A DNA stretch of 64,000 nt from Laetmonice hystrix (Eukaryota), in contig OZ249436.1 in NCBI GenBank assembly GCA_965235115.1, positions 36,644,001 through 36,708,000 on the forward strand. Direction: 5' to 3'. Shown piece after piece: positions 44,334 to 64,000 of this stretch (its first letter is position 1; each line of letters starts with the position of its first letter). The notes below the pieces were generated by a model. It did not search any database. It was not told the origin of the DNA and worked only from the letters and a program-made list of their open reading frames with translations. The position numbers were made by a program, and so were the translations under genes.

Positions 44334-45559
44334 TTAAGGTGATGGAGCCGTCCTTGCGCTTGTGCCTTGTTTGATGATAGGATAGGATGGTCAGGTTTCC
44401 AGGGCAACTTGACCTGATATCGTTCGCCTGTGAAGTGGATAGAAGCGTCAAACTGGTCGACTGCAATGTCATCATTGGAACGGAAACTTCTAGCGCAGAC
44501 ACTCCTATGCCCTCCAACTCCCAGAACCTGGCGACAGTTTCATCGGTCAGAGAGACTCCCTTGGCGACAACAAAGAAATTGTGGATCATGGTGTCATCTC
44601 GGGGAGTAACGTCCTTCTCAGAGACTATCCAGCCAAATGTGGACGTTACTGCTATTGGACAGTCGGGGGGGGGGGGGTCCCCTACGAACCTCTGAGCCTA
44701 CCGCCTCCCAGTAATAGTCAAGCTCGACTAGTATGCTGATTCCCAAGGCTGAGTGTTCGTTGGAGTCAGCTAGTTGGAGGTTACGTAGGTGTGGATAGTT
44801 TGTGAGCGGAAATAGTGTCAAAGGTGAAGGTAGTGATTCTCTCTGTCACTTTAGCTTCCACACTAAGCCTTCCTGATCCATGTTGGTTGTAGTGACGGTA
44901 GCAGAGGACGGCAGACTGGCGTGCAGCACTCAGTAGAGTTGCAGTGGGTGTGAGAGAAGATGTAGATGTAATGTCCCCCGTTCAGATTAGGAGATGCATT
45001 GTGGTTGAGTGAGGTTCGCTTAGTGACAGGGACGCCTTTCGAGCACAGTAACGGATGGTGCTCTGCTCCACAGATGAGACATGGGCGAGCTGATTCACAT
45101 TTACTTTCATGATGTGGACCAAGGCACTTGAAGCAACGTTTGTCCTTCCGGATCAGCGCTTGGACTTTAGATGGAGAAAACTGAGCTGAATTCCTACATC
45201 TGTCAGGATGATGATGATAGTTACAGAAAGGGCATGGAGGCGGACCCTTCTGCTGAGTACCCAGCCCACTATGTAAGACGGCCGTAGGTGCGGGTTGCTT
45301 GGGAAGTGAAGATTTTGACTTGTTAGGGTGCTCCCTGTCATAATTATTCTTCCTTTGTGATGGTGTCTTGCTTATAGGTATCTCAGTTTCCGTTTCTGGT
45401 CGTTTAAAGGAAGAAGCAGACTCGTATATCTCAACCTCCTCTTTGAGGAATTGTAGAAACAATGTGAGTCTGTTGGGACGAGGCTCTGCCCCATCTGCAC
45501 CGGTCGACTTCTGCGATCGTTCGCCTTTGCTAAAGACGTCTTAGTGGAACGCACCCCAG

Positions 45560-47180
45560 GTATCAGCACCTTTTATAGGATATGCTGACTACAGTGGAGA
45601 CAGATGCAAGCCATAGAGGATTAGGTGCTGTTCTGTCCCAACAAGAACATCAACCTATTGTGATTGCTCATGCAAGCTGTTCATTGAAACCACGTGAGAA
45701 GAGCATGGAGAACTAATTAAGCAGCATGAAGCATGAGTTGTTAGGCCTACACTGGACGTTGACAGTAAAGTTCAGAGACTTGCTGCTTGGAGCCAAGACT
45801 AGAGTGTACACAGAAATAATCCTTTGGGCATGTCAACATCAAAGCTTGGCGCACTGGAAACAAGATGGGCATCTGCAGAGCAGGCACAGTTCGATCTGGA
45901 AATTCTTTATCGCTCCGGGAAACAGAATGCAAATGCCGGTGCTCTCAGCAGAAAAAAAAGAACATGGCCCAGACCATGAAGCTGTGAGAGTGGAGGAACT
46001 TGTCTTGCAAACATATTTGTCAAACAGACAGGAAAGGGACCCCACAATTGGTCGACTGAAATTAAGTCCTATTGGCAAGGTGGCATGGAAACATGTCAGG
46101 GACGAGGAGGATGCAGTCGGCTCTCCCTCGACAGATGGCAGATCATGTCTTGGCCGTAATGGTCAGGTCGCCATTTTTGAAAGTAGTCACATAACAAAAC
46201 AAACCCATGTGCTTTCCACAGCTGCCACCTTGGCCTTTGGCGCTATAAAAAACAAATTCTAGTGGGTGTTCACGGAAGGGACGGTGATCAGAGTTAAATG
46301 TGAAATAACGTCCTCCTTCGTATCTCGCCGAGACTGCCTCACCAGTTTCCAAGCGCTTCGCGCTAGCAGTAGCAGCGGCCCCTGTCGCCGCTGTCGGTGG
46401 CTGTGACTGAGTCTGAGTCAGCGAGTGTGTGGGCGGTGTGGCCCAGCCGATGAAACGAATGGAGGCATAAGCCATTTCCGAGTTCAGCATATTTCCCTCT
46501 GTTTTGGTTTAACTGCCGCGACTTTCCTTTGGTTATCGGACAGTTTTCAAGTGCATAATGCAAACACTCATCAACCGCTGCCATAATACGCTGTAGGGAT
46601 TACTTGGTCAGCGCGCATTGTGCCCCCCTGCCTGCTTACTCAGTATTCACTGGCGCCGCATCACAAAGTCACACAAATCTGTCCATTACACCCGAGGTGA
46701 AAATCCGAACCCAGCGGAAGCTGACGGACTTTCCCGACGGTTCCCGAATGGAGGAGGATGGTATACTGTAGCGAGCAATTAGGGGTGCAGGAAAGGAGTT
46801 CAGACAGTTAGGCTACTCATCCCTGAGCTCCTAAGGAACACAGTGATTAACCTGTGCATGATTAAATGGGACATCAAGTGTTGAGACAACTTTGACAGTG
46901 GCACAGTCAAGATGCTATCGGCCATATATGGCCAGGGACGTCGAGAAGTATTGTCAACGTTGTATGACGTGTACCCTTTCAAAGGCAGGGAAGAAAGTGC
47001 ATACCAAGATGGGTCACCGGCCAAGAAACCCCTTGAAGTATTGGCAATGGATTTCACCTGACTGGAACCAGGCAAGGGAGGAAAGGAGGATGTGCTTCTG
47101 CTAATGGATATTTTCACAAAGTACAGTCTGTTTCGACTAAAGACCAAAAAGCCAAGAACCGTAGCAAAGGCTCTGGTAGA
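45560..47180 (+). mobile_element. Ty3/Gypsy pol remnant (RNase H, integrase), interrupted about 46140-46745
   Basis: ETDASHRGLGAVLSQ..IAHAS.SL..KHELLGL..KFRDLLLG; MARDVEKYCQRCMTC; PLEVLAMDFT..MDIFTKY; stops and frameshifts. Confidence 0.85.
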
Positions 47181-50100
47181 CTAATTTCCCGACATGAGAA
47201 GTTTATAGGTGACTGATTTTTACGATTGGTCATGGTGTTGATCATGGTAGGCATAGAATTTCGGCCTACTACGAGTCTTTAAAAAAGTTAAACTGATCGA
47301 CTGTGCAGTCGTCAATGGGTCCTGGCATAGACAGGAAAATTGCGGCAGTCATAAAATAAAACAAATATGGCACTTGGTATCGTGCACTATGAAAATTTAT
47401 GGCACGATGGCAACTGATATTGCACGACGCGAAGCTATATGGAACAAAATGACAAAAGCGACAAAAGGACCCATAGGCTAGGTGCATGGGGCTGGTCAGA
47501 CTGACTACTCCTTTAGCTTTGGCTACGGAGTAGGCTAAGCTACGGAGTATAAATGGGATCTCTTCCTTCAGGCCCACTTTGACTTTGCATATGCGCCGGA
47601 ATTTAAGGATATTGAGGGGGGGGGGGGGGGCAAAGACCAAATCATAGCGTTCCAAGTTCCAAGATTTGAAATGGATTGGAAATAGGCCTGACGCGTTTCC
47701 TTGGCATCTGGGAACACAATCTAGGCCCTCTGACGCGTGTCTGACCATCTCCCGCCACCTTTGAGCTGGGGGGGGGGGGGGGGGGGCAAAACTATAGGCC
47801 AATTGCAAGCTTGCCCCCCCCTGGCAGCTTTTGAGCTGAGGGGTAACAGCCCCCCCCCCCCCCCCCCCATTCCGGCGCTTATGCTGTTTGAGACATTTTA
47901 GGGTAGGGGACCTACACGAAATCCCTATCATTCTGCCCTTCTCGTCCCATGTGCATGATGTTCTCTGAAAAAATGTAGTTTCCCCGGCCTAGGCTAGGCC
48001 TATTAGGCGGCCTACCGAGATAGGCCTAATTAGATCTACATAATTTAGGCCTAGATCTATATTTTGCTCCATTTTGCCAACTAGATCTAAAACTGTATCC
48101 TCACTGGACGCGCGCGACGCGTGCGATGTAAATAGAAAATAGAACCTAGATCCGTCACAAAAAAATGCCTCGCGCGTCGCGTCGCTCGCGTCCGGTGAGG
48201 ATGTGGCTTAAAATAGCACTGTGCATCGTGGATCAATTTTTCTAGATTTCTAAGGGGGGTTGCAACCCCCAAAACCCCCCTCTGGATCCGGCCCTGCCGG
48301 GCCCTGCCCTACCTATCCTGAATTTCTAACGTTAGCGGGCCCAAAGCCACGCGGCAAAGGCAAAAACAGAACGATGATTTTCTCAATTTGTGTCGTGGCA
48401 CCAGAATTTGCCTGCCTGAACTGGATGGAACTGGGAACCACAAAAGTTACTCATCCCTCTGCAATAAGATGCATCCGTAATGGTGCGATCAACGGAGCTA
48501 TATTATCGCTGGGTGAAACAGTCTGTTGAATCGTTGTGCTTCAAAAATGTCAAGTCTTAGAACAATCAAATATTTAGAAAATGCCGTTGCATCTGACATG
48601 AACCGGAAGTCAGTATCCCCACTTCTGTGACTAGGCCCACATGATCAATCACTGAAACAGCACCATAGTACTTTGGATACACGACTTATTTAACCTCTTA
48701 CCTGTTAAGTTTCGAGTCGACTGCGTTCTTAAATACATGTATAGTAAGACTCCATTAAAATGTTTATGATTCACCTTTTACTTCCCTTTCTAATGTGAAT
48801 GCTTCTTGAATGTGAAAGTACTAAAGTGAGGGTTGGCTTGCAGTGCGGACGTGACGGAGGCTGCTTTGACCGACTCCGCCTGGTGATGTGTAGTTGAGCC
48901 TGGGAATGAAGCATGAGACGAGGTCTGTCGGCGAGGTCCTCCAGGATTTCCACGTTAAGGCATAGTTAAAGGTGTCGCTTTTGTTGATTTTATGCATATT
49001 GCACCGTATTAGCTCACATCCCATGAGAAAGTAACCGGTTTATTATTGGAACTTTAACAAATTCTTTGACATCGTTGTGAAAAAGCATCAGCTTAGCCCT
49101 AACGTTAACTATTTTCGAGGGGTGCAGAGAATGTGGTCTCACATCACTGTCTTTATTGTTTATAGTACATGTATATCCAAACGGTCCTTTGTCAGATCTA
49201 TAGAGTATAGTTCGTAATCACACTGTTACCTGGCGGCAGGTGTTGGCATGTCGAGATGTTCCAACTACAGTAAACTGTACATTGCAAACTGCAAAGTCCA
49301 TCTAAATCTTAAGTTATGCATCATTCGTTGTATGATGACCAGGTTTTCAATTTTAAAATTTCAAAAAAATCTTGGATCCACCCTATCCATGGTTATGCCT
49401 ATCGTGACAACCGATCATAGGGACGGTTAGTTCAGTTTCTAAACGGTGTCTTCCAGTCTAGTTCCAGAACGTTTAGTTGTCAAGTTACCCTGGCTCAGCG
49501 ATTCTTGGACGCTCTGCAAAGAGGTCTGTTATCGCAACTTTGTGGCCTTTTTTGTTTGTTTTGGTACCGATACTAAACTTTTTCCACTGAGCATGAAATC
49601 CATTTTTATAGAGAGCCAGGTATTGAAATTTCTATAACAACCGTTATAATGAGGCCTATTGAACAAATATAACGTTGATACGGTCTGGTTGTTTACGAGC
49701 ATGTCGGGTGCGTCATGACGTACTTATAATGCGGTCCATTCCAGATCCATATAGAGGTCGGAAATGCGCACACCGGATAAACTGGGTCAGCCCACGTTGA
49801 CCGCGCTGCGCTGTATTTGAACAGACAAACTGGGAATTTCACCTCCTAAGATAACATCCAACAAAATACATTCACGTAGATCTGTCAAGAGGACAACTTG
49901 AGGTACCCTCTTTTGTGTACAAAAGATGGAACCCTCCCCTAAGGCCAATTCTGGGTACAGGCCTGAGATTCAGGCATCAAAATTACCGGGAGCCCGGGAG
50001 GTATTTTCATCATTCTTTAGATTGATGCAAGATTGTTGAGAATAACAAAGTCAGTAGGGGCCTATATTGGGGGGGGGGGGATGTCTGTAGATTCCGGTTG

Positions 50101-50840
50101 ACGTATATCATCAAGGCAGTGCTGATTTTCATACATTTTCCAACTTTTCCCAACTCTGCATTAGTCGTAAAATTCCGGGCCCCCAGATTTCTTGCCGGGC
50201 TCCCAGATTTCAAATTCTGGGAGCCCGGCTGGCTCCCAGATTTTTTGTCCTAATTTCTAACCCTGAGATTGATAGTCTTGTGGGTTTTTAGAACTTGCTA
50301 GGGGTATTACGTGTGTTTGCTATTTCAATTTTTGTGTGCAGGCCTACACCTAAAATGCTTTTCATTCCTAATTCACAAGCATTAACCAGAACATGGGTAA
50401 CTACGATCCATGTGAAGTATTTGTACTCAACAGGGGTCACAATGTGAAGTTGTATAATGATTAAAATTGGTCTATTTTCTTGTTTTATGCAGAGATATGC
50501 CAACATGAATTTTTATAACAAAATGCAAATCTTGAAAGATTTTTACTATTTTCGGTTGTACATAGCAGGTTGGCAGGTTTGTAATGAGTAAGTAGCTACC
50601 TGGTACTTAAGTGTATTATGGTAGTAGCTAGTAGGGAAGGGGAAATGGGCAGTGTTCCCAAGTTGGTGATTCAATTTTTTGACAAGTAGGCACCCTTTTA
50701 AAAAGAAATTTATGTTCTTAATGACACATGCACTCAGAACGTCAAACTTCCCTGCCCCCCCTCACAAAAAAATATTATAAGTACATGTTACATTTCCTTC
50801 TTTCAGACAATTCTACTGCAGAAGTGAATCCAAGGACGCA

Positions 50841-51659
50841 ATGGTTGTCAAAACTGACCAGGATAGAATCAAGGCTTTGCTTGGTGAGGCCATACGAGTT
50901 CTGTGCAAGAATGGCCTAAACTACAAGCGTGAGTTCAGCATTGAAGGCCTTCTTGGAATTACCTTGGACAGTGAGGATGTCTTTTTAGTGAACATAAATG
51001 AAACTGTTAGTCCAGGGCCAGAGGCAGCGCCTAGCTCACCCCAAAGAGAGGGAGATGGCCACAGAACATTTTCATCGAAAAAGGAGCGTCCTCATGATTA
51101 CATTTCTCCCAAGTCTCCAACACAAGATGTCCGAGTTCCTCCACAGCAGGCACCAGTTCTGCCCGTCTTAAAAACAGACAACCACATGCAGCTGCCAGTG
51201 AGAACCTGCGAACAAAGTGAGGCTGCCTCATTTTCAGAGCATTTGGAACATTCTCAAAATAGAAAAAGACTAAGGACACCTGAGAGAAATTTTAGGCTAA
51301 CACAGTCGGGAACAACATCACAAGAGGAGTTAGAACATTCTGGGGGTGGGCATGATTATGTTATGGTTAAACGTGAGCGCCTGAGTGACTCTGAAAGTGA
51401 ATCAATGGTACATATGTCACAGCCTGTGTTCAGGGGGGAGGAAGACAGTGTGAACAGTCAGGGAGAGGCCAGTGACCAGGCTGATCTTGGCTTGTCCTCC
51501 ACAGCTGATGATGAGCACCAACAAATTGCTGGGAGGATGGTCCCAGTATCCACCATGTGGGACCCCAGTACACTAGGCTATGCACTACCCACAATGGCAG
51601 GCATGGCAGCCATGGCACAATCCTTTAATTCTTCCATAGGAGCAGCTGTTCTCAATCAG
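50841..51659 (+). CDS. Zinc-finger gene, shared first coding exon (compact N-terminal domain + low-complexity linker)
   Basis: Acceptor tttcag| at 50806; ATG 50841; 273-codon ORF ending AAT CAG|GTATAG (phase 0). Confidence 0.88.
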
Positions 51660-52635
51660 GTATAGAATCCTTTGGTACAGTTTTTTGGCTAACATTTTCA
51701 GACTCTAGAAGTAGGTTTTCCCCATTACTTTAAGTAGACTGCCTATTTCCCTAGAAAGTGTCTGGTAGATACCTGTGGTAGATACAATGCTTACAATCTT
51801 CTCCAGTGAGTGTTGTGCTTTTGATGTAAGAAGCTCTCTTCGACTGAAGACTTTCCGAGACTTGTTGGATCAGTCAGCCTCCTATGAGTGACGTAGAATT
51901 TAAGATTATATAACATCCCCTTTCCTCAAGGATAGGCCCTTCCACTTGAGAAGGTACTAATGTTTTCAGTAAGGCAGAATCAAGTTAGGGCAGATGGATA
52001 AAATGAATGCTCAGAACTTGTGAAAAAGGGAAAACCATGTTTGCTTTCAATGGGAAGGAAATTTTGGCAAGACACATACATGTCTGAATCTGTGTAAGGT
52101 CTTCAAGAATTGTTCAGCAGACTGACTACTTATTATATTGACGTATATATCGATTTTTGAAACCAACTTTTTTAGTCAGGACTACTTCAAAGAAAAAGAA
52201 AAAGAAGCTAAAAAAAAGGTTTTCGGTATATGCATCCATTCGTTCAACTTCTTATCAGAATCCTGTACCATCAAGAGAATTTGCATTTGTGAAAAGCAGT
52301 GGCCTTTTCAGCTTTGTATCGCATGTATTGATTCCTTTAATTTTCAAATTTGTTAGCCGAACCCTCTGACAGTAATTAATAGCATACATGTAAAATTTTG
52401 TGAAAAGCAGCAACCTTATTTTTGCAGATGAATGTCAAAAGGGATGCATTGTTTCAGCCACTTGGACCACAAACCCGCACATGAAAGTATCTAATGCGTT
52501 GCCATTTGATGCCCTGAATTTCTTCCTCATTTTTCATCAGATTTCAATTATTATGTAGTTTTTGAGCTCATTATGTGGTTTTGGCTATGTACATAAGAGC
52601 TCATAATATATATGTGGTTTTGGCTGTGTGTGTAG

Positions 52636-52833
52636 GAGCTCATATGCCCCGTGTGTGGCAAACAGTATGCGGCCGGCCTGCAGTGGAAGTATGAGCGGCA
52701 CATGGCCACGCACGGACACCGCACCTGTGAACTGTGTGGAATGACGTGCAAGAATTCCCAGGCCCTCAGGGCTCACCGCTACAGGCACAATAAGAAACTC
52801 AAGATTCTCTCCAACCAGAGTAACAATACCTAG
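52636..52833 (+). CDS. Alternative terminal exon 1 with two C2H2 fingers
   Basis: tgtag|ELICPVCGKQYAAGLQWKYERHMATH-GHRTCELCGMTCKNSQALRAHRYRH..*; phase 0. Confidence 0.78.
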   Translation, partial: ELICPVCGKQYAAGLQWKYERHMATHGHRTCELCGMTCKNSQALRAHRYRHNKKLKILSNQSNNT

Positions 52834-53189
52834 AGGTGGGTGGGTTCCCGTGGACAGCACTTTTCTTTAGTTCACTCAAGTTCAAAATGCTGACACTTTA
52901 GTAGAAAAGGAAAGCTGAAAAAGTCAACTCAAAGTTGTTGCCACGAGATTTCAAGGACAAGGTTACATCCCTCACGAAAGACCCAAGCCCCATACAAGTA
53001 ATCCAGTCTGACAGAAATTCTAGCAAGAATATAACATTTCGCATCATGTGAAACGTACAATATAAATGAGTTATAGTTTAGATTAGGGTCAAGTTAAATT
53101 ACTTAAAGAATAGCCAGAATTGTGCAAGTTCACTTTGCAAATACGTTACAGTGGGACTGATTTTGCAGTACAGTAATCGTGGATTGTAA

Positions 53190-53443
53190 AAGCTGCCGCA
53201 GACCACGAACATTTGTTCACGAACATTTTGTTCCTGAACAAAAATCCGCTCGTGTGCCGTGATCAATTGTTCGTCGGTATTCAACATGTTTAATATTTCT
53301 GAACAAATGTTCGTCGTCTGCGGTAAACCACGAATTTCTGTTAATCTGCATGTCGAATACCTTCGAACAATTGTTCGCGAACATTAATTGTCCATGCAGA
53401 TTTTTGTTCGCGAACAAATGTTCGTTGTCTGCGGCGGCCTTTA
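53190..53443. mobile_element. MITE (intronic)
   Basis: GCTGCCGCAGACCACGAACATTTGTTC...GAACAAATGTTCGTTGTCTGCGGCGGC. Confidence 0.75.
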
Positions 53444-54244
53444 AGTTTAAGAACACAACATGTCACTTGTACATTATAATATTTTAAGCATCTTCCTAAT
53501 TGAAATGTTGATGAAAAAAGTCCTCGCTCAAATGGCCAATGTAGTGAAAGAAAAATTGCACAATTCTCTGGTGTTACATATGTAAACATTGCACTGTAGT
53601 ATAGGAATGCTGATATTGCTGTCTCTGCAGCCAACCAGTGGTGGTCTGTTTCTGTCTGTTCTGGTATCTAGAAGCACTGTCCAGGTAGTTTCTACTGCTA
53701 TAGAGTTACCTTATATCCTTGTAGATGACCCTGCACTCTACCATCATGTCTCTGGGTCGGTAGTGTCTGTTATTCTCCTGTCCTGTCATTAATTTAGTCT
53801 TTTTACAAGTTTCCTTTTAATCAGCAATATTATTGCTGTTAACGGTATTCATTTGGTGGTTAGAGATCAAATTGATTTATTTTCAAAGCCTTTCGTTTTC
53901 ATTAGGGATTGAGTTCTTCACTACAAGTAAAGAACGTATGTAATATGACCACCAAAGAAAATTTATTGACTACTTTTGATGGGATTTCTTTGATATCGAA
54001 AGCACTCCTTTCATTGTGATTTTAAATTAGCTGAAAGAAACTTATGTACACATTTTTTTATACATTCATTGTAATTAATTTTAGAGGGAATGTAGTATCG
54101 GAATCTTTAAAATTGTTAAGTGTGTTTGTCATTGTGGTGTTGAATCTAATGGAAGCATTCCTTGCAGATGTTTGGCAAATTGTCTTTCAACTACTCTGTT
54201 GACATAATGTGATGAAGCACGTTTTGTTCTGTGTTTTCCTTCAG

Positions 54245-54562
54245 GGAGCGTCAGTATTTAGTGCTTCTCCCTTGGCAAGTCGTTCACTTCTCAATCCTCA
54301 AGCCATACTGGGCAGACGGCTCTCATCATTCTCCTCGTCCTCGTCCACCAGAGGGCGAACATTTGTTTGTCCTGTGTGTGGAAAGGTTGTCCGCACTAAC
54401 CAGGCTCTCCGTGACCACATAGCAACTCATGAACAAACCAAACGATATCAATGTCAGTACTGTGGACAACAGTTCGTCCATCGATCCTCGCTCGCCAATC
54501 ATCGCAGAAAGTGTGTTCAAGGAGTAAATGGAAGCCATCCCGATGGGTGGGCAAAGACTTGA
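54245..54562 (+). CDS. Alternative terminal exon 2 with C2H2 + C2HC fingers
   Basis: ttttccttcag|GASVF...FVCPVCGKVVRTNQALRDHIATH-EQTKRYQCQYCGQQFVHRSSLANHRRKC..*; phase 0. Confidence 0.87.
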   Translation, partial: GASVFSASPLASRSLLNPQAILGRRLSSFSSSSSTRGRTFVCPVCGKVVRTNQALRDHIATHEQTKRYQCQYCGQQFVHRSSLANHRRKCVQGVNGSHPDGWAKT

Positions 54563-55498
54563 AGTCTATGATGATGGAAGACCCCAGTAGTGTTACTGGT
54601 CGTAGGGTGCTCATAGAACAGCTCAGATAGCTGCTGTTTTTATACCTTTAAACACGGGCCATGAAACTTATCTTGTTATCCTATAAGTAGGATGGGTAGT
54701 TCGAACCCTCCAAAATGACTAAAATATTTACACTGTACATCGTGTATATGGGTCCAAACTGCAAGCTGTTAAAGGCATGAGAGAAACAAATTTCCGCAGC
54801 CACGGAGAATATTCTCATAGACTTAAGTTCAAAATGGGGACAAGAATCACATGAAAGAACTGATAAAATCAGAATCCTTGGCATCAATAGATCTTGCAAT
54901 GGCTGTTTTGGGAACAAGGGAGTTTCTAGGAAAGATTTCCAGAACGGATGCAGCCTAACGTGGCAGCTCTGAATGGGCATCCAAGGGTGAGTAGCCCTAC
55001 ATGGGCGACCCCGAGTGTCCGTGGGCAACTGTCGGCCAGTAACATAGTGACGTCTACATGATACAGCATGTGATCTATTATGTTGAACAATAACATAGTG
55101 ACAGATTACAGTAATCAGAGTAATGCTGGTGGAGCTTATGGGATGGCACATATCGTCCGAATATGTGTAAATTATGTTTCATTGAGATTTATTAAATGAA
55201 ACAAGAATGAATTTTAACAAAACTTGGAATATTGGTTCGTATTACCGGTATCTCACTAAAATTCGATAATGGGGCAAAGTTTAGGTTCTCATGTTAGGGC
55301 ATAGAAATTGATTTTTTTTTACAATTACTGCAAAAGAAGTAGAATCAAATGTTATGCCTCATTGTAAGATGCTAATCCTTTTATTTTTTTCTCTTTTTGG
55401 TCACCCAGATCGTTTCTTCCCAAGTGCTTTGCATGGAAGGTTAAAAATTATGTTATGTATAAGGTTTTAAATACGCAGCTCACTTGTTTCAAGAATAA

Positions 55499-55610
55499 AG
55501 GCCCTGATACACGACCGATTTACGGCCGATTTTTCTCTATAGGAAAACTATAGAGAAAAATCGGCTGTATCTCAAAATCGGCCGTACATTGGTCTGTGTA
55601 TCTGGGCCTT
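55499..55610. mobile_element. Short MITE (AGGCCC..ATACAC TIRs)
   Basis: AGGCCCTGATACAC...GTGTATCTGGGCCT; internal CGGCCGATTTT/AAAATCGGCCG. Confidence 0.7.
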
Positions 55611-58702: not shown

Positions 58703-58810
58703 ATGGGGACGAAGGGCAATCAAAGTGCTGTAGAACTGAAGAGTCATGGCAACAGATTTTTCTCTATACGCAAATACAACGACGCCATAGACTGCTACAC
58801 CAAAGCCATC
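58703..58810 (+). CDS. STUB1: STUB1/CHIP E3 ligase exon 1 (TPR)
   Basis: MGTKGNQSAVELKSHGNRFFSIRKYNDAIDCYTKAI|gtgagt. Confidence 0.92.
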
Positions 58811-60429
58811 GTGAGTTCGAACTTAGTTTCACTTTTTTTGTTTTGTGCTTCAGTTCAATTTGTACTCTGTAGGCTAGGTGGTACCTTTGTCTAACGTTAG
58901 GGTAATTCGGCCTAGGGCCTATCCCCAGCCCGAGGCCTAGCCCTAGGTCGGGCCTGACCACTTGGGCTTGGCGCTGGGCCACTCTTGGCAAGTTATACGC
59001 AGTGGTTATGGCAGAATAAGTAGGCTAACGTTAGGCCTAAAAAAAATTAGTTAGCCTTATTTTATTAAAGCTTGCTAATAAGTCAATGTTCTATGAGATG
59101 ACGCACTGCCCTCCCCGGTCACCAGTCGGGTCGGCGCCCGTTCGGGACTGGAGGTGATCGGCGCCGATCAAATATCAAACATTTTTTATATTGAATCGGG
59201 GGGGGGGGGGGGGGGGGGGGTGATTAGAGGCAAGCCAATAACCTACAGATGGTCAGGCGTAGCACGCGGCGGCTCCGCCAGTGTCGCGGTCTGTTTTCTC
59301 CGCGGTCTGAAATCTCCGGGAGGTTGGCTGCAGAGTCGTGTGTATTTGTATTGTTCTCGGTCAACTATCTGAAATATCTTGTCAGGATGGAGTCTCACGT
59401 AATAACCCTTTTCTCCTCTGTCAGTTTTGGTCCATAATTTCCCTATCCAGGCTGTCGTTTATTACAGTTTAGAACAAAACTCCTCTGCCTATCAGCTAGC
59501 AGACGACCGGAGGTGTGAGCCCAAACTGTGACACGCGCATGCTCACATCGTCAGGTTCGGTCTCTAAACAATAGGAAACCATGCACCCGGAGATTGCAGA
59601 CCGGCGGAGAAAACAGACCGCGACACGGACAGAGCCGCCCACGGGACTAAACTATCACTAACCCTAGGCCAAACCTTAACCTTAACCGCCTAGGCCCTGG
59701 TCGAGTACGTAAGGGTCAGAGAGAGAGAGAAAGAGAACGGAATAAATAGAGTTGGCAGCCGTTTGTTGTTGGCGGCCAGATCCTGTATACACCTTCGTGC
59801 CAACTGGGTTGCGACTGCCTATGACCCACTGCCAGTGGCGCCCGATCACGTCCCGAATTCAGGCAGTCGGGACGTGATCAGCCCCGATTTTGTCCAGTGC
59901 GTCATAGCCTTTACGGCCACAAAACAATATGTTTGGGTTAGCCTTAGGGTTAAGGTTAGGCCTAGGGTTAGTGTTAGTTTAGTCCCAATATTGTTGTTAA
60001 TTAGGCACTAATTAGATAATCTGCCATTCTGCTGTCAAACGATATCCAATAAGAATCCAGTATTGCAGTCACATGACCCATCCATACGCCAGCAGAATAA
60101 CCACTACCTAAGTTATATTAGACTAATTAGTGCGGTACCATACGTAGTAAGTTAGAGCCTACACGTACAGTACAGACAGTCAGTAGTGAGGCCTATCAAA
60201 CTATAACTTACTGAGGGTGTACGTTAGCCGTTTACGGATTTATAGCATAGCCTAGCCCTAATCAGAGGCTAGGACAGTTAAAAGGACACTCAATATGGAC
60301 CTAAGGACTAAATCTAGTAGGGAGAGCCCCTGGTGGCCAACTGAAACATTAAAGGCATTACCCACTTATAAAGAAATTCTGCATTTAACGAATTTCTTTC
60401 CGTGGCCCCAAGTGCTTCGTTATAGCCAG

Positions 60430-60583
60430 GGGCCGGTTTTACTAAAGGTCCTTATTTAAGGACGTCGCTAATTTAACATAGAAGTGAATGGGTTGCTAGG
60501 TCGAAAATAAGGACCTAGCAACCATTCACTTCTATGTTAAATTAGCGACGTCCTTAAATAAGGACCTTTAGTAAAACCGGCCC
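60430..60583. mobile_element. Near-perfect palindromic MITE, CAG target duplication
   Basis: About 72-bp arms, short loop; CAG-GGGCCGGTTTT...AAAACCGGCCC-CAG. Confidence 0.88.
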
Positions 60584-60714
60584 CAGATTCCCCTACAGGC
60601 TCTTTCATCTCAGTACCTTTGTTTAAAACTGACCATATCTGCAATTCCTACTTACTACTTAGTACTATTTATGTGAGTAAGGGACAGGGAACCTCTGCCT
60701 ACCACCATCACCTG

Positions 60715-61318
60715 GGCCCGGTTTCTCCAAACATCTCAAGGAATTTTGAGAACGTGTGCTCAACTGGCGTGCTCAAGGCGTACTCAGCAGTTCTTAGCGG
60801 TTGCTCGAAGCATCTCAGGCTTGAGAACCCGTTCTCAACTCTAGACATAGATGTCTATGCTCTAGACTATGCAAGATTCTATTACGTCACTGATGACAAT
60901 GAACGACGTCACTAACGACAATGAACGACGTCACTGGTGACAATAGATTACGTCACAATAACAATAAGTGTGTCAAGTTGTTTGAGCGATTGTCTGCTGG
61001 CGCGTATTTTTATACACGACTTGCAAATGTTCCTGCCGACTTTTGCGGTCGTTTTTTCACATTATTATTTCACAAAGACACTCATGAAAGGCAAAGTTGG
61101 GAAAGGAAGGAAGAGAGTTGCTAACTGGAGTGTGGAAGATGAGTTAATTTTAATTTCAGATGATGGTGCTCAAAGTTGAGCATGCTATGGGAGCATACTC
61201 AGAATAAGGCAGTTGAGCACATACTTAAGTACGTGAAAAAGTTTCGAGAAACGCCTCCGTGCTCAAGTTGAGCATAAGGTACTTAAGTACGCCTTGAGAT
61301 GTTTGGAGCAACCGGGCC
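60715..61318. mobile_element. Harbinger deletion derivative with Myb/SANT-like ORF remnant
   Basis: CTG-GGCCCGGTTTCTCCAAACATCTCAAGG...CCTTGAGATGTTTGGAGCAACCGGGCC-CAG; internal KGRKRVANWSVEDELILI. Confidence 0.75.
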
Positions 61319-61914
61319 CAGGACTAAACTGTTCAGATATCCCTGGAAGACTATAATGAAATTTTCCCATGGACCAGGTGATAGTGGTAGGCCTAGGCTC
61401 CCTGTCGCTTACTTGCATAAACAGTACTTCCAGAATTGCAGAGTTTTAAGTTGTAATAGGCCTATAATGTTCCCTATTCCTAACCGGTGGTCCGCTGTCA
61501 TTAGTATCATTCGCAGTAGTCCGCAGTGAAAAGTGCTATCCAGTTCCCCCCCCCCCCCAGACACACGTTTTGGAGGGACCTAGGCTACCATAAAATTTGA
61601 GTCTTTAAGTTGCACCATTGTCATTGAAGAACTAATTGTGTCATAGCAATTGGGCCAACCTTTTTACTGCATATGTGATCAGTTGATGATTACAAGGGGA
61701 TGCATCATTGATAACAATTTTTGCATGACATCTTAGTTTGTATTGTAAAAGTGCTTTGCTATTTGAAGTGCAATACCATTTAAATTGAGTCAAGAAGTGT
61801 CTGTATGGCAATCGTTGGCATTGATAGGTGAAGTGAAAGTTTGTGTATTTGTTCATGGTGCTTTTTGTTTTCTTTTTTGAAGCTGGTGATAACATTTATA
61901 TTTGTGCATTTCAG

Positions 61915-62113
61915 TCAAAGAATCCTTCAATACCAACACTTTTCACAAATCGGGCCCTGTGCTATTCAAAGCTACAACAGTGGGAGTTAGCATGCCAGGA
62001 CTGCAAGCGAGCACTGGAAATGGACCCTGCCCTTGTAAAGGGTCACTTCTTTCTTGGCCAAGCTTTGTTAGAAATAAATCTTTATGATGAGGCCATCACA
62101 AGTCTTATGAGAG
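61915..62113 (+). CDS. STUB1: STUB1 exon 2 (TPR)
   Basis: cag|SKNPSIPTLFTNRALCYSKLQQWELACQDCKRALEMDPALVKGHFFLGQ..LMR|gtaatt. Confidence 0.95.
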
Positions 62114-62830
62114 GTAATTAATCAGGATATGCCATAAGTACTTGACATTCTACTTTCAATCTTTGAAGTGGTACTGGAATTAGTTCCTATACAGCGGAGT
62201 CTAGTTATAACGAAGTATTTGGGGGGTGGAAAATAATTCATTATATATGAGGAAATTTGTCAGGTGGCAAAAGCTGACATAAATTTACTTCTGGCCAAGT
62301 TGGTAACAAGTCGCTTCACAAGTCACCAGTAGTAGGCAAGCTAAACCTGGGCATGTGTAGGGCCCTTCATTCCTTCCCTTCTGGTGGCCCATGCCTGCCA
62401 ACTTTGGCCCCGGGTCTGTTGTCACTTGACCTACTTCGTTAAAGCTGGGCAATTCGTCAGTTTAGGGGGAAACTTGCCTTCATTATAAGGGTAATTTCGC
62501 TATAGCCAGATTCGTTATATCCGTATTTTATTATATTAAAAATAACAAAAAATATTTGATTCCTAAGAATGACTTCGTTATAGGCAGAATTTCATTATAG
62601 CCATGTTTGTTATAATTGGACTCCACCATACATATTTTTGTGTCTAATGAGCTAAATTCTCTATAGCCAAAAGGCCTGCTTGATATGGAACAATTAAATG
62701 AGTGTATAGTAAAAGAAATACCTGCAGTTTATTTAATCAATTACTCACAACATTTATATGAACACGTGTTGGCTTGTCAGAAAATTATTACGCTTTCACT
62801 GATATGTATAATGCAACTGGATTATTGCAG

Positions 62831-62996
62831 CACATGATTTGGCAAAGGAGCAGAAGTTAAATTTTGGCGATGATATAGCAAGTGCACTGAGACAAGCAAA
62901 AAAGCGCCGCTGGACGGTCATAGAAGAAAAAAGAATTCAACAAGAAATTCAACTCCAAACATACTTAAATAGATTGATTTTGGAAGAAAAAGAAAG
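62831..62996 (+). CDS. STUB1: STUB1 exon 3 (helical linker)
   Basis: cag|(A)[54 protein letters not shown]|gtaatg. Confidence 0.95.
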
Positions 62997-63482
62997 GTAA
63001 TGATTAAATACATTATGTATCATTAAAAGTGAAGTAATACTCTGATGTTTAATGTAGAACATTCTAGATATTTATAATTTTAAGACCCGATGCAGTTTGT
63101 CTGCTTTCCATGAACTATATGTACTGGGGTACTTGCCACTTTACAAAAATATCTATCATTGCATGCTTTCCTTCATCGCTGAATACAGTCAGACCTCATT
63201 AATCCTTGCTTCTTTAATCCGTTTCCCTCACAGTCTGGACACACTTTCTGGTAACCTCTTCTACCATTTTCTATTTAAAGTGATTCAGTAATCAGTATGT
63301 TTTACAATCAAAACACGTTTTAATGGGCACCAAGCTGTTCGAATAAATGAGGCCTGACTGTATTTCATGATTAAATCTGTGTTAAATTTAGTTACAAGTG
63401 TTAATTATGATCATAAAGATGTTTGTATTGCTGTTGTGTTGCCTTTTCTCCTATTGAGTAACTTTTTTTTATTTATAATCAG

Positions 63483-63555
63483 ACAGTTGCAAACATTGAA
63501 GGATGCAGGAGAATGTACTAATTCAGAAGCTGCTGACCATATTGAATTGGAAAAT
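63483..63555 (+). CDS. STUB1: STUB1 exon 4; U-box exons lie beyond the window
   Basis: atcag|(R)QLQTLKDAGECTNSEAADHIELEN|gtaagt; phase matches exon 3. Confidence 0.8.
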
Positions 63556-64000
63556 GTAAGTTTGTCATCTCTCATAAACCGATACTCATACATGAAATTA
63601 TATTAGAGGTATTAAATTAGATTGTATCCCTTTCAAAAGTTGAATTTACACTTATAGTATTTATCTTAGATAGATTATGCATCAATTTCTAATGTTATGA
63701 CATGCAGGAGTGATCTTTGCATTTGTCTGAAACCTTCAATTTTACACTTTGTATTGAAGTAGAAGTGGTTTTTTTTTTATATATTATTTAACAAATTTCT
63801 AACCAGTTACCGGTACCATTAGATTAATAACTTTAATATAATAAACATGGTCTTAATTTACTTATAATTAAAGTTTTTCTTTGAAGGTAGAGGTTTAACT
63901 TTAAGTTGAAATGAACTTTATAAATAAATCACTTTGAATAGCTAAATGTTTTATACCTTTTGTAATGGCCTGTACATCAGATTTCCTGTTGCTTTTTTCT

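Follow-up and report, generated by a model that had tools for sequence, protein, structure and literature searches.

A candidate isoform-switching transcription-factor gene of Laetmonice hystrix with one non-BTB head exon and two zinc-finger end exons

Can a gene whose N-terminal domain is not a BTB diversify its DNA-reading ends in the manner of the Drosophila gene lola? The question is raised by a locus of Laetmonice hystrix that lies in a 64,000-nucleotide stretch of contig OZ249436.1 (assembly GCA_965235115.1, positions 36,644,001 to 36,708,000 of the forward strand; this whole stretch is the window, and plain coordinates below are counted from its first letter). A first-pass annotation, made from the sequence letters, had proposed a lola- or mod(mdg4)-like architecture here, namely a constant exon ending in phase 0 and two downstream exons with different zinc-finger pairs and their own stops. 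Our reading is that the gene probably makes two transcription-factor isoforms by splicing the phase-0 donor at 51659 to either of two end exons, A or B. About 38 genes of this genome form a family that shares the same unnamed head domain, and the gene is a minimal case among them.

The constant or head exon occupies 50807..51659 of the plus strand, directly after an AG that ends at 50806 (acceptor score 13.9; this and all other acceptor scores were obtained with a matrix trained on the family). It carries a 34-nucleotide 5′ untranslated region (UTR) and 273 codons, which are open from the ATG at 50841 to the phase-0 donor AATCAG|gtatag with its GT at 51660, as had been claimed. P0001, a near-identical ortholog, terminates at the same residue as the exon. 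End exon A (52636..52833, plus strand) encodes 65 amino acids with two C2H2 fingers and has its own stop at 52831-52833. It starts directly after tgtgtag, the TAG of which is also an in-frame stop, so that its frame can be entered only through splicing, and direct reading finds no methionine ahead of the first finger. End exon B (54245..54562, plus strand) is preceded by ttccttcag (score 13.3) and encodes a linker, a C2H2 finger and a C2HC finger, 105 amino acids in all, with its own stop at 54560-54562; lola also has C2H2 and C2HC pairs. Both phase-0 starts after an AG and both finger types are as originally annotated, and both exons pass the Pfam zf-C2H2 cut-off of 25.2 bits (26.4 for A, 43.3 for B). 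In a six-frame motif scan they are the sole finger-pair arrangements in the window. The introns that lead from the donor measure 1.0 kb to exon A and 2.6 kb to exon B. DNA contigs from three runs of one sample span both exons and the introns collinearly and without joints; the layout is thus not an assembly artefact.

The proposal of swappable ends on a non-BTB head is supported far more by the paralogues, whose arrays reach at least 79 phase-0 ends, than by this locus alone. The genome contains 38 copies of the head domain, which is a lower bound, and 31 of them lie on one contig; a second, distant query recovered 37 of the same 38. Stretches of 10-100 kb downstream were read for 32 copies, with finger exons detected by a profile built from the local fingers. 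At least two candidate end exons on the same strand follow 20 of these 32 heads, one follows six, and none was found behind another six. As to the remaining six heads, three have fingers in the same frame, one is followed by one finger exon, one by none in the stretch read, and one has a short frame. The heads' strands carry 208 finger frames, to which two extensions add 15 more, and the largest arrays hold at least 79 finger exons (behind C1:29172077, where the end of the array was not reached), 54, 33, 16, 13 and 9. The arrays extend over 50-70 kb and contain strong acceptors by the dozen, and a portion of the largest is covered collinearly by independent contigs. No further head occurs inside any array, the 10 kb ahead of the large-array genes are free of finger exons (5 of 5), and finger frames on the opposite strand are seen only where the stretch contained a facing family gene. 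Head and fingers stand in one uninterrupted genomic frame in 3 of the 38 family genes (C1:12469324, C1:73716053 and C2:8902752), possibly retrocopies or intron losses.

Fingers are not the sole type of end. Strong phase-0 acceptors also enter a frame of about 215 residues that has no Pfam family (example loci L211-L240), and all 55 of its 55 genome copies lie downstream of a head and on its strand, in 10 genes. Three of these 10 genes also hold finger exons before or among the ~215-residue exons, and L005 is a fourth. Phase 0 was found for 28 of the 30 such exons tested. This end type was not found in 80 metagenome loci or in the proteins retrieved at that stage. A GATA zinc-finger exon, again in phase 0, follows a family head at L075:7596-7760 on the minus strand. 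The present locus has neither a GATA finger exon nor the ~215-residue end domain.

Across the family, the exons obey a common phase rule. When the best acceptor of each frame was chosen without regard to phase, it proved to be a phase-0 site in 178 of the 208 finger frames versus 190 of 620 control frames, a count that overstates independence, the exons of an array being duplicates of one another. In 170 of the finger frames with a phase-0 best acceptor this site lies inside the open frame, phase-0 acceptors form the majority in 15 of 16 genes, and the best head donor is in phase 0 in 28 of 32 heads. The end exons are under purifying selection: the ratio of non-synonymous to synonymous substitution rates (dN/dS) is 0.28 for the finger regions of 15 disjoint close exon pairs, which were chosen at an identity of at least 72%. 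Within a gene, the finger contact codes are distinct in every exon (60/60, 44/44 and 21/21).

In other organisms the head is joined to fingers at the position of this donor. Four pairs of assembled proteins (P0229/P0245, P0232/P0249, P0269/P0035 and P0284/P0034) show the same head either overrunning into the intron or joining a finger exon there; the joined forms would derive from RNA, and each of the four joins shows one end only. The annelid gene models P0188 and P0221 make the same head-to-finger join. In three of the 80 metagenome loci (L112, L165 and L183) a single frame covers head and finger, and more finger exons, each with its own acceptor, come after it. Such a layout fits a spliced message whose 3′ UTR crosses unused exons; at the present locus, too, the stretch between exons A and B lacks a poly(A) signal. 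Genomic arrays behind heads also occur elsewhere, with five and six exons behind two divergent heads in L123, seven exons in L160 and two each in L115, L152 and L170; most of the 80 metagenome loci are too short to show arrays.

Considering the layout, the phase rule and the joins, we propose the following model. Within one transcript, the single head donor would be joined in cis to one acceptor among those downstream, giving isoforms that share the head and an acidic linker and differ in their DNA-reading ends. When a proximal exon is chosen, those beyond it would remain unspliced as part of a 3′ UTR that ends at a common poly(A) site. Arrays would expand through local duplication of a unit of acceptor plus exon, for which phase 0 would be the sole requirement, and each end would confer another DNA-binding specificity. 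The head domain may serve as a common pairing or cofactor platform, by analogy with the BTB of lola. The alternative use of ends by one head, and with it the alternative splicing of exons A and B at this locus, is what we infer from a pattern supported at the level of the family. A pairing of docking and selector sequences like that of Dscam was not seen: the 10-mers of the first intron each had complements in at most 3 of 60 upstream regions, other genes' introns gave the same result, and this held for 6 of 6 arrays.

Several observations weigh against this model, in addition to the duplicate nature of the array exons and the identity threshold of the dN/dS pairs. In the stretches read, 12 of 32 paralogues have one or no end exon, and the frame of exon B has a methionine upstream of its acceptor. 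AATAAA behind array exons is in no clear excess (43 of 170, versus 33 on the other strand). L112, L165 and L183 may be intronless genomic copies; they need not be transcripts, because 3 of 38 heads in the present genome carry fingers in the same genomic frame. Fingers occur in 31 of 401 retrieved proteins, and none of 40 head-sharing pairs has two different finger ends; nor was a head with two ends found in the 30 clusters looked up or in a search of cluster representatives. Assemblies that break at forks would hide one head with two ends.

The remaining weak points concern exon A, and they bear on the possibility that the family is as described and this locus uses exon B only, exon A being a decaying duplicate, so that a single finger isoform is made. 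The acceptor of exon A scores 5.7, a value as low as which is found for about 6-10% of 170 family acceptors, the spacer in its first finger is 14 residues long rather than 12, and the exon scored below the cut of the family finger profile. The 8-mer that opens the exon occurs three times in some 80 bases (52560-52645), as if the acceptor region had been locally duplicated, and no poly(A) signal was found between exons A and B. Even so, the 65-codon frame of exon A is open and starts cleanly in phase 0, and none of the eight zinc ligands is missing; paralogues have end exons of the same finger type, and identity to the short finger exons of L002 and L005 is 31-38%; and, among the rows listed, other alleles carry no break in it. 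We regard the use of exon B alone as unlikely, and splicing to either exon as the better account of the locus.

We give a similarly low probability to the idea, raised by the mention of mod(mdg4) in the first-pass annotation, that the end exons are mainly trans-spliced to the head from separate transcripts with their own promoters. In its favour, a donor acting in cis must skip dozens of strong acceptors across arrays of 50-70 kb, and lola combines cis and trans modes according to the accessible text of PMC13490949. A contig of another organism (L141:70-1122, also P0051) joins a family head at the usual donor to an exon of BRI3 (Pfam PF10164, E 1.4e-11), out of frame; this join may reflect trans-splicing, read-through or an assembly chimera. 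On the other side, the assigned finger exons and all 55 second-type exons are downstream on the head's strand and none is upstream, whereas mod(mdg4) has exons on both strands (PMC13490949, accessible text). With introns of 1.0 and 2.6 kb, cis splicing is sufficient at this locus, and trans-splicing in the style of mod(mdg4) finds no support in the arrangement of the exons.

Far less probable again is a reading of the finger exons as independent small genes, or as successive parts of a single long poly-finger protein. Tandem clusters of C2H2 genes are common in animals, and 157 of the 208 finger frames have a methionine before the first cysteine, but 51, including exon A by direct reading, have none. 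The median end-exon spacing is 571-1,267 nucleotides, and a spacing of about 0.6 kb leaves little room for promoters; phase 0 would be unneeded in separate genes, and relatives show the head joined to a finger. One long protein is made unlikely by the stop in each exon and by the scarcity of donor-like sites after the last finger (15 of 170 exons, 4 of them in phase 0).

If cis choice among ends is how these genes work, what does the head contribute? No Pfam family was found for the 273-residue head exon, in line with the original view that the N-terminal domain does not look like a BTB; no BTB model was matched by any of 30 head domains in Pfam, even with the E limit set at 1, and a PDB sequence search with the head returned nothing under E 0.9. 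The conserved portion is about 55 residues long (50841..51011, plus strand), and its AlphaFold2 model consists of one long helix and a β-hairpin (mean predicted local distance difference test score (pLDDT) 84). Fold searches gave a best Z of 4.1 (root-mean-square deviation (rmsd) 7.0, 56 aligned residues) and a Foldseek E of 0.9, scores that cannot decide for so small a domain. Prediction of a two-head complex scored 0.02 in a run that did not use the alignment.

Relatives of the head number 77 proteins with a single query, 955 with a profile and 1,897 clusters at 50% identity. Those of the matches that carry names are gene models from the three annelids Lamellibrachia, Ridgeia and Paralvinella, and among the matches listed most of the unannotated relatives terminate in residues typical of a frame that overruns a phase-0 donor. 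A tree of the head domain (50 rows, 59 columns), from which we claim no order of events, is poorly resolved; it pairs this gene with P0001 and places the largest finger arrays in one supported clade. A feature-based atlas search with the head alone found nothing. With P0132 it found an unnamed cluster that scored 0.92 and whose 3 members of known taxon belong to Annelida; the structure rows of this search that fell below threshold include clusters from molluscs that bear names like 'zinc finger protein 37 homolog isoform X25', a lead towards many-isoform mollusc gene models.

Two matched head-domain stretches occur in single proteins (P0078-P0082 and P0307-P0310), and the range P0090-P0188 contains many near-identical heads on long contigs, two of which have names from tubeworms. 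It thus seems that the head itself was tandemly multiplied in some lineages, a possible second route to diversity. The tandem-head proteins P0078-P0082 also offer a hint, from sequence, that heads may form dimers or multimers; together with the BTB analogy, they suggest that the head could have a role in pairing.

The ~215-residue end domain has a confident predicted model (pLDDT 92.5), the best structural rows of which are SIRV1 ORF119 (Z 7.2, rmsd 3.2, 112 aligned residues) and Vientovirus Rep (Z 6.3, rmsd 3.3, 105 aligned), followed by the Rep proteins of Helitron, parvovirus and geminivirus (Z 5.1-5.4). It also matches unnamed and Rep-named viral models at E 0.002-0.02. The HUH/Rep matches range overall from Z 4.8 to 7.2, all below 8, with unrelated ferredoxin-like folds close behind. 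Foldseek against the PDB gave no match, nor was there a sequence match to HUH/Rep, and the histidines of what we take to be the HUH motif are not seen in the alignment of the domain. The resemblance of the model to the HUH/Rep endonuclease fold is thus a lead only.

In the surroundings of the locus, the first AATAAA after the head exon stands at 55494..55499 on the plus strand and would probably be the shared poly(A) signal; an ATTAAA is present at 55191. The array is bounded by the first coding exon (58703..58810, plus strand) of a TPR-protein gene that spans 58703-63600 downstream on the same strand and that we take to resemble STUB1/CHIP. Upstream, 44863-47180 contains retrotransposon-like remains, in which the minus strand carries a Cys/His-knuckle frame without a Pfam match and the plus strand an integrase zinc-binding piece. 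High-copy repeats with very high summed contig depth lie at 49400-50260 and 53200-53430, the latter being an inverted-repeat element in the intron between exons A and B.

Two further phase-0 candidates of the first-pass annotation did not stand. The acceptor near 52427 would open a finger-less mini-exon of 18 amino acids and a stop (52428..52484, plus strand; score 8.7), and the other candidate is a 54-nucleotide cassette (53631..53684, plus strand; score 6.4). Both were rejected, as sites with such scores occur at the background rate, which is 0.55 per kb at a score of at least 8 and 1.18 per kb at a score of at least 6. The whole interval 51660-55400 contains nine acceptor-like sites scoring at least 4, or 2.4 per kb, versus a background of 2.6 per kb.

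More than 275 end exons were counted in this genome. A broader picture, to which we grant somewhat less than an even chance, would be that an isoform-library superfamily of transcription factors evolved independently in annelids, and perhaps in other spiralians, in which an undescribed head recurs in dozens of genes, each of them a socket for expandable DNA-reading ends that include a tamed Rep-like domain, and in which heads pair to give a combinatorial repertoire in place of the BTB isoform genes of arthropods and the KRAB finger clusters of vertebrates. If the family works as proposed, the design of a constant head with swappable fingers arose separately from the arthropod BTB genes and at a larger scale, and the transcription-factor repertoire of these animals is larger by hundreds of isoforms than the number of genes suggests, since a gene caller will tend to report a head that overruns into the intron, or one end only. 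With 2 to about 80 equivalent acceptors per array, this one genome makes the choice of one 3′ exon testable in cis, with the two-exon locus described here as the simplest case, and the two unnamed domains with confident predicted folds, the head and the ~215-residue end, are targets for structural and binding work.

How does the family compare with known systems? The accessible text of PMC9921365 contains no mention of it, and no paper on it was found in the literature on annelid, mollusc, lophotrochozoan and siboglinid zinc-finger or terminal-exon genes, within a coverage that excluded supplements and most subscription papers. According to the accessible parts of PMC11426971 and PMC13490949, Drosophila lola has 20 isoforms, 17 of them with different C2H2 ends, and mod(mdg4) has at least 30, made by trans-splicing only, the exons lying in clusters that have promoters of their own and that are in part on the other strand; the search reported there did not find the TTK-type BTB in Annelida or Mollusca.

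With mod(mdg4), as the same partial sources describe it, the family has in common that one constant region is followed by alternative 3′ exons in the dozens and that there is more than one type of end domain. It differs in that mod(mdg4) is a BTB gene with mostly FLYWCH ends, the exons of which form five clusters distributed over both strands, have their own promoters and are joined by trans-splicing only, whereas all ends found here are collinear with the head. Broad, fruitless and tramtrack, with two to a few alternative finger-pair terminal exons, match the scale of this locus, but they have a BTB head and are arthropod genes. The closest likeness is to lola, a Tramtrack-group BTB zinc-finger gene with, as far as the sources extend, one constant N-terminal part and many alternative C-terminal C2H2 exons, and in the present family, too, several zinc-finger terminal exons of one phase, each with a stop, come after a constant exon. 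The differences are that (i) the head is a helix-plus-hairpin domain of about 55 residues without a BTB, (ii) head and linker lie within one coding exon, and (iii) about 38 genes share the design, with arrays of at least 79 ends and the ~215-residue end type mixed in. The locus would work like lola but, judged by sequence, is not a member of the lola/BTB group.

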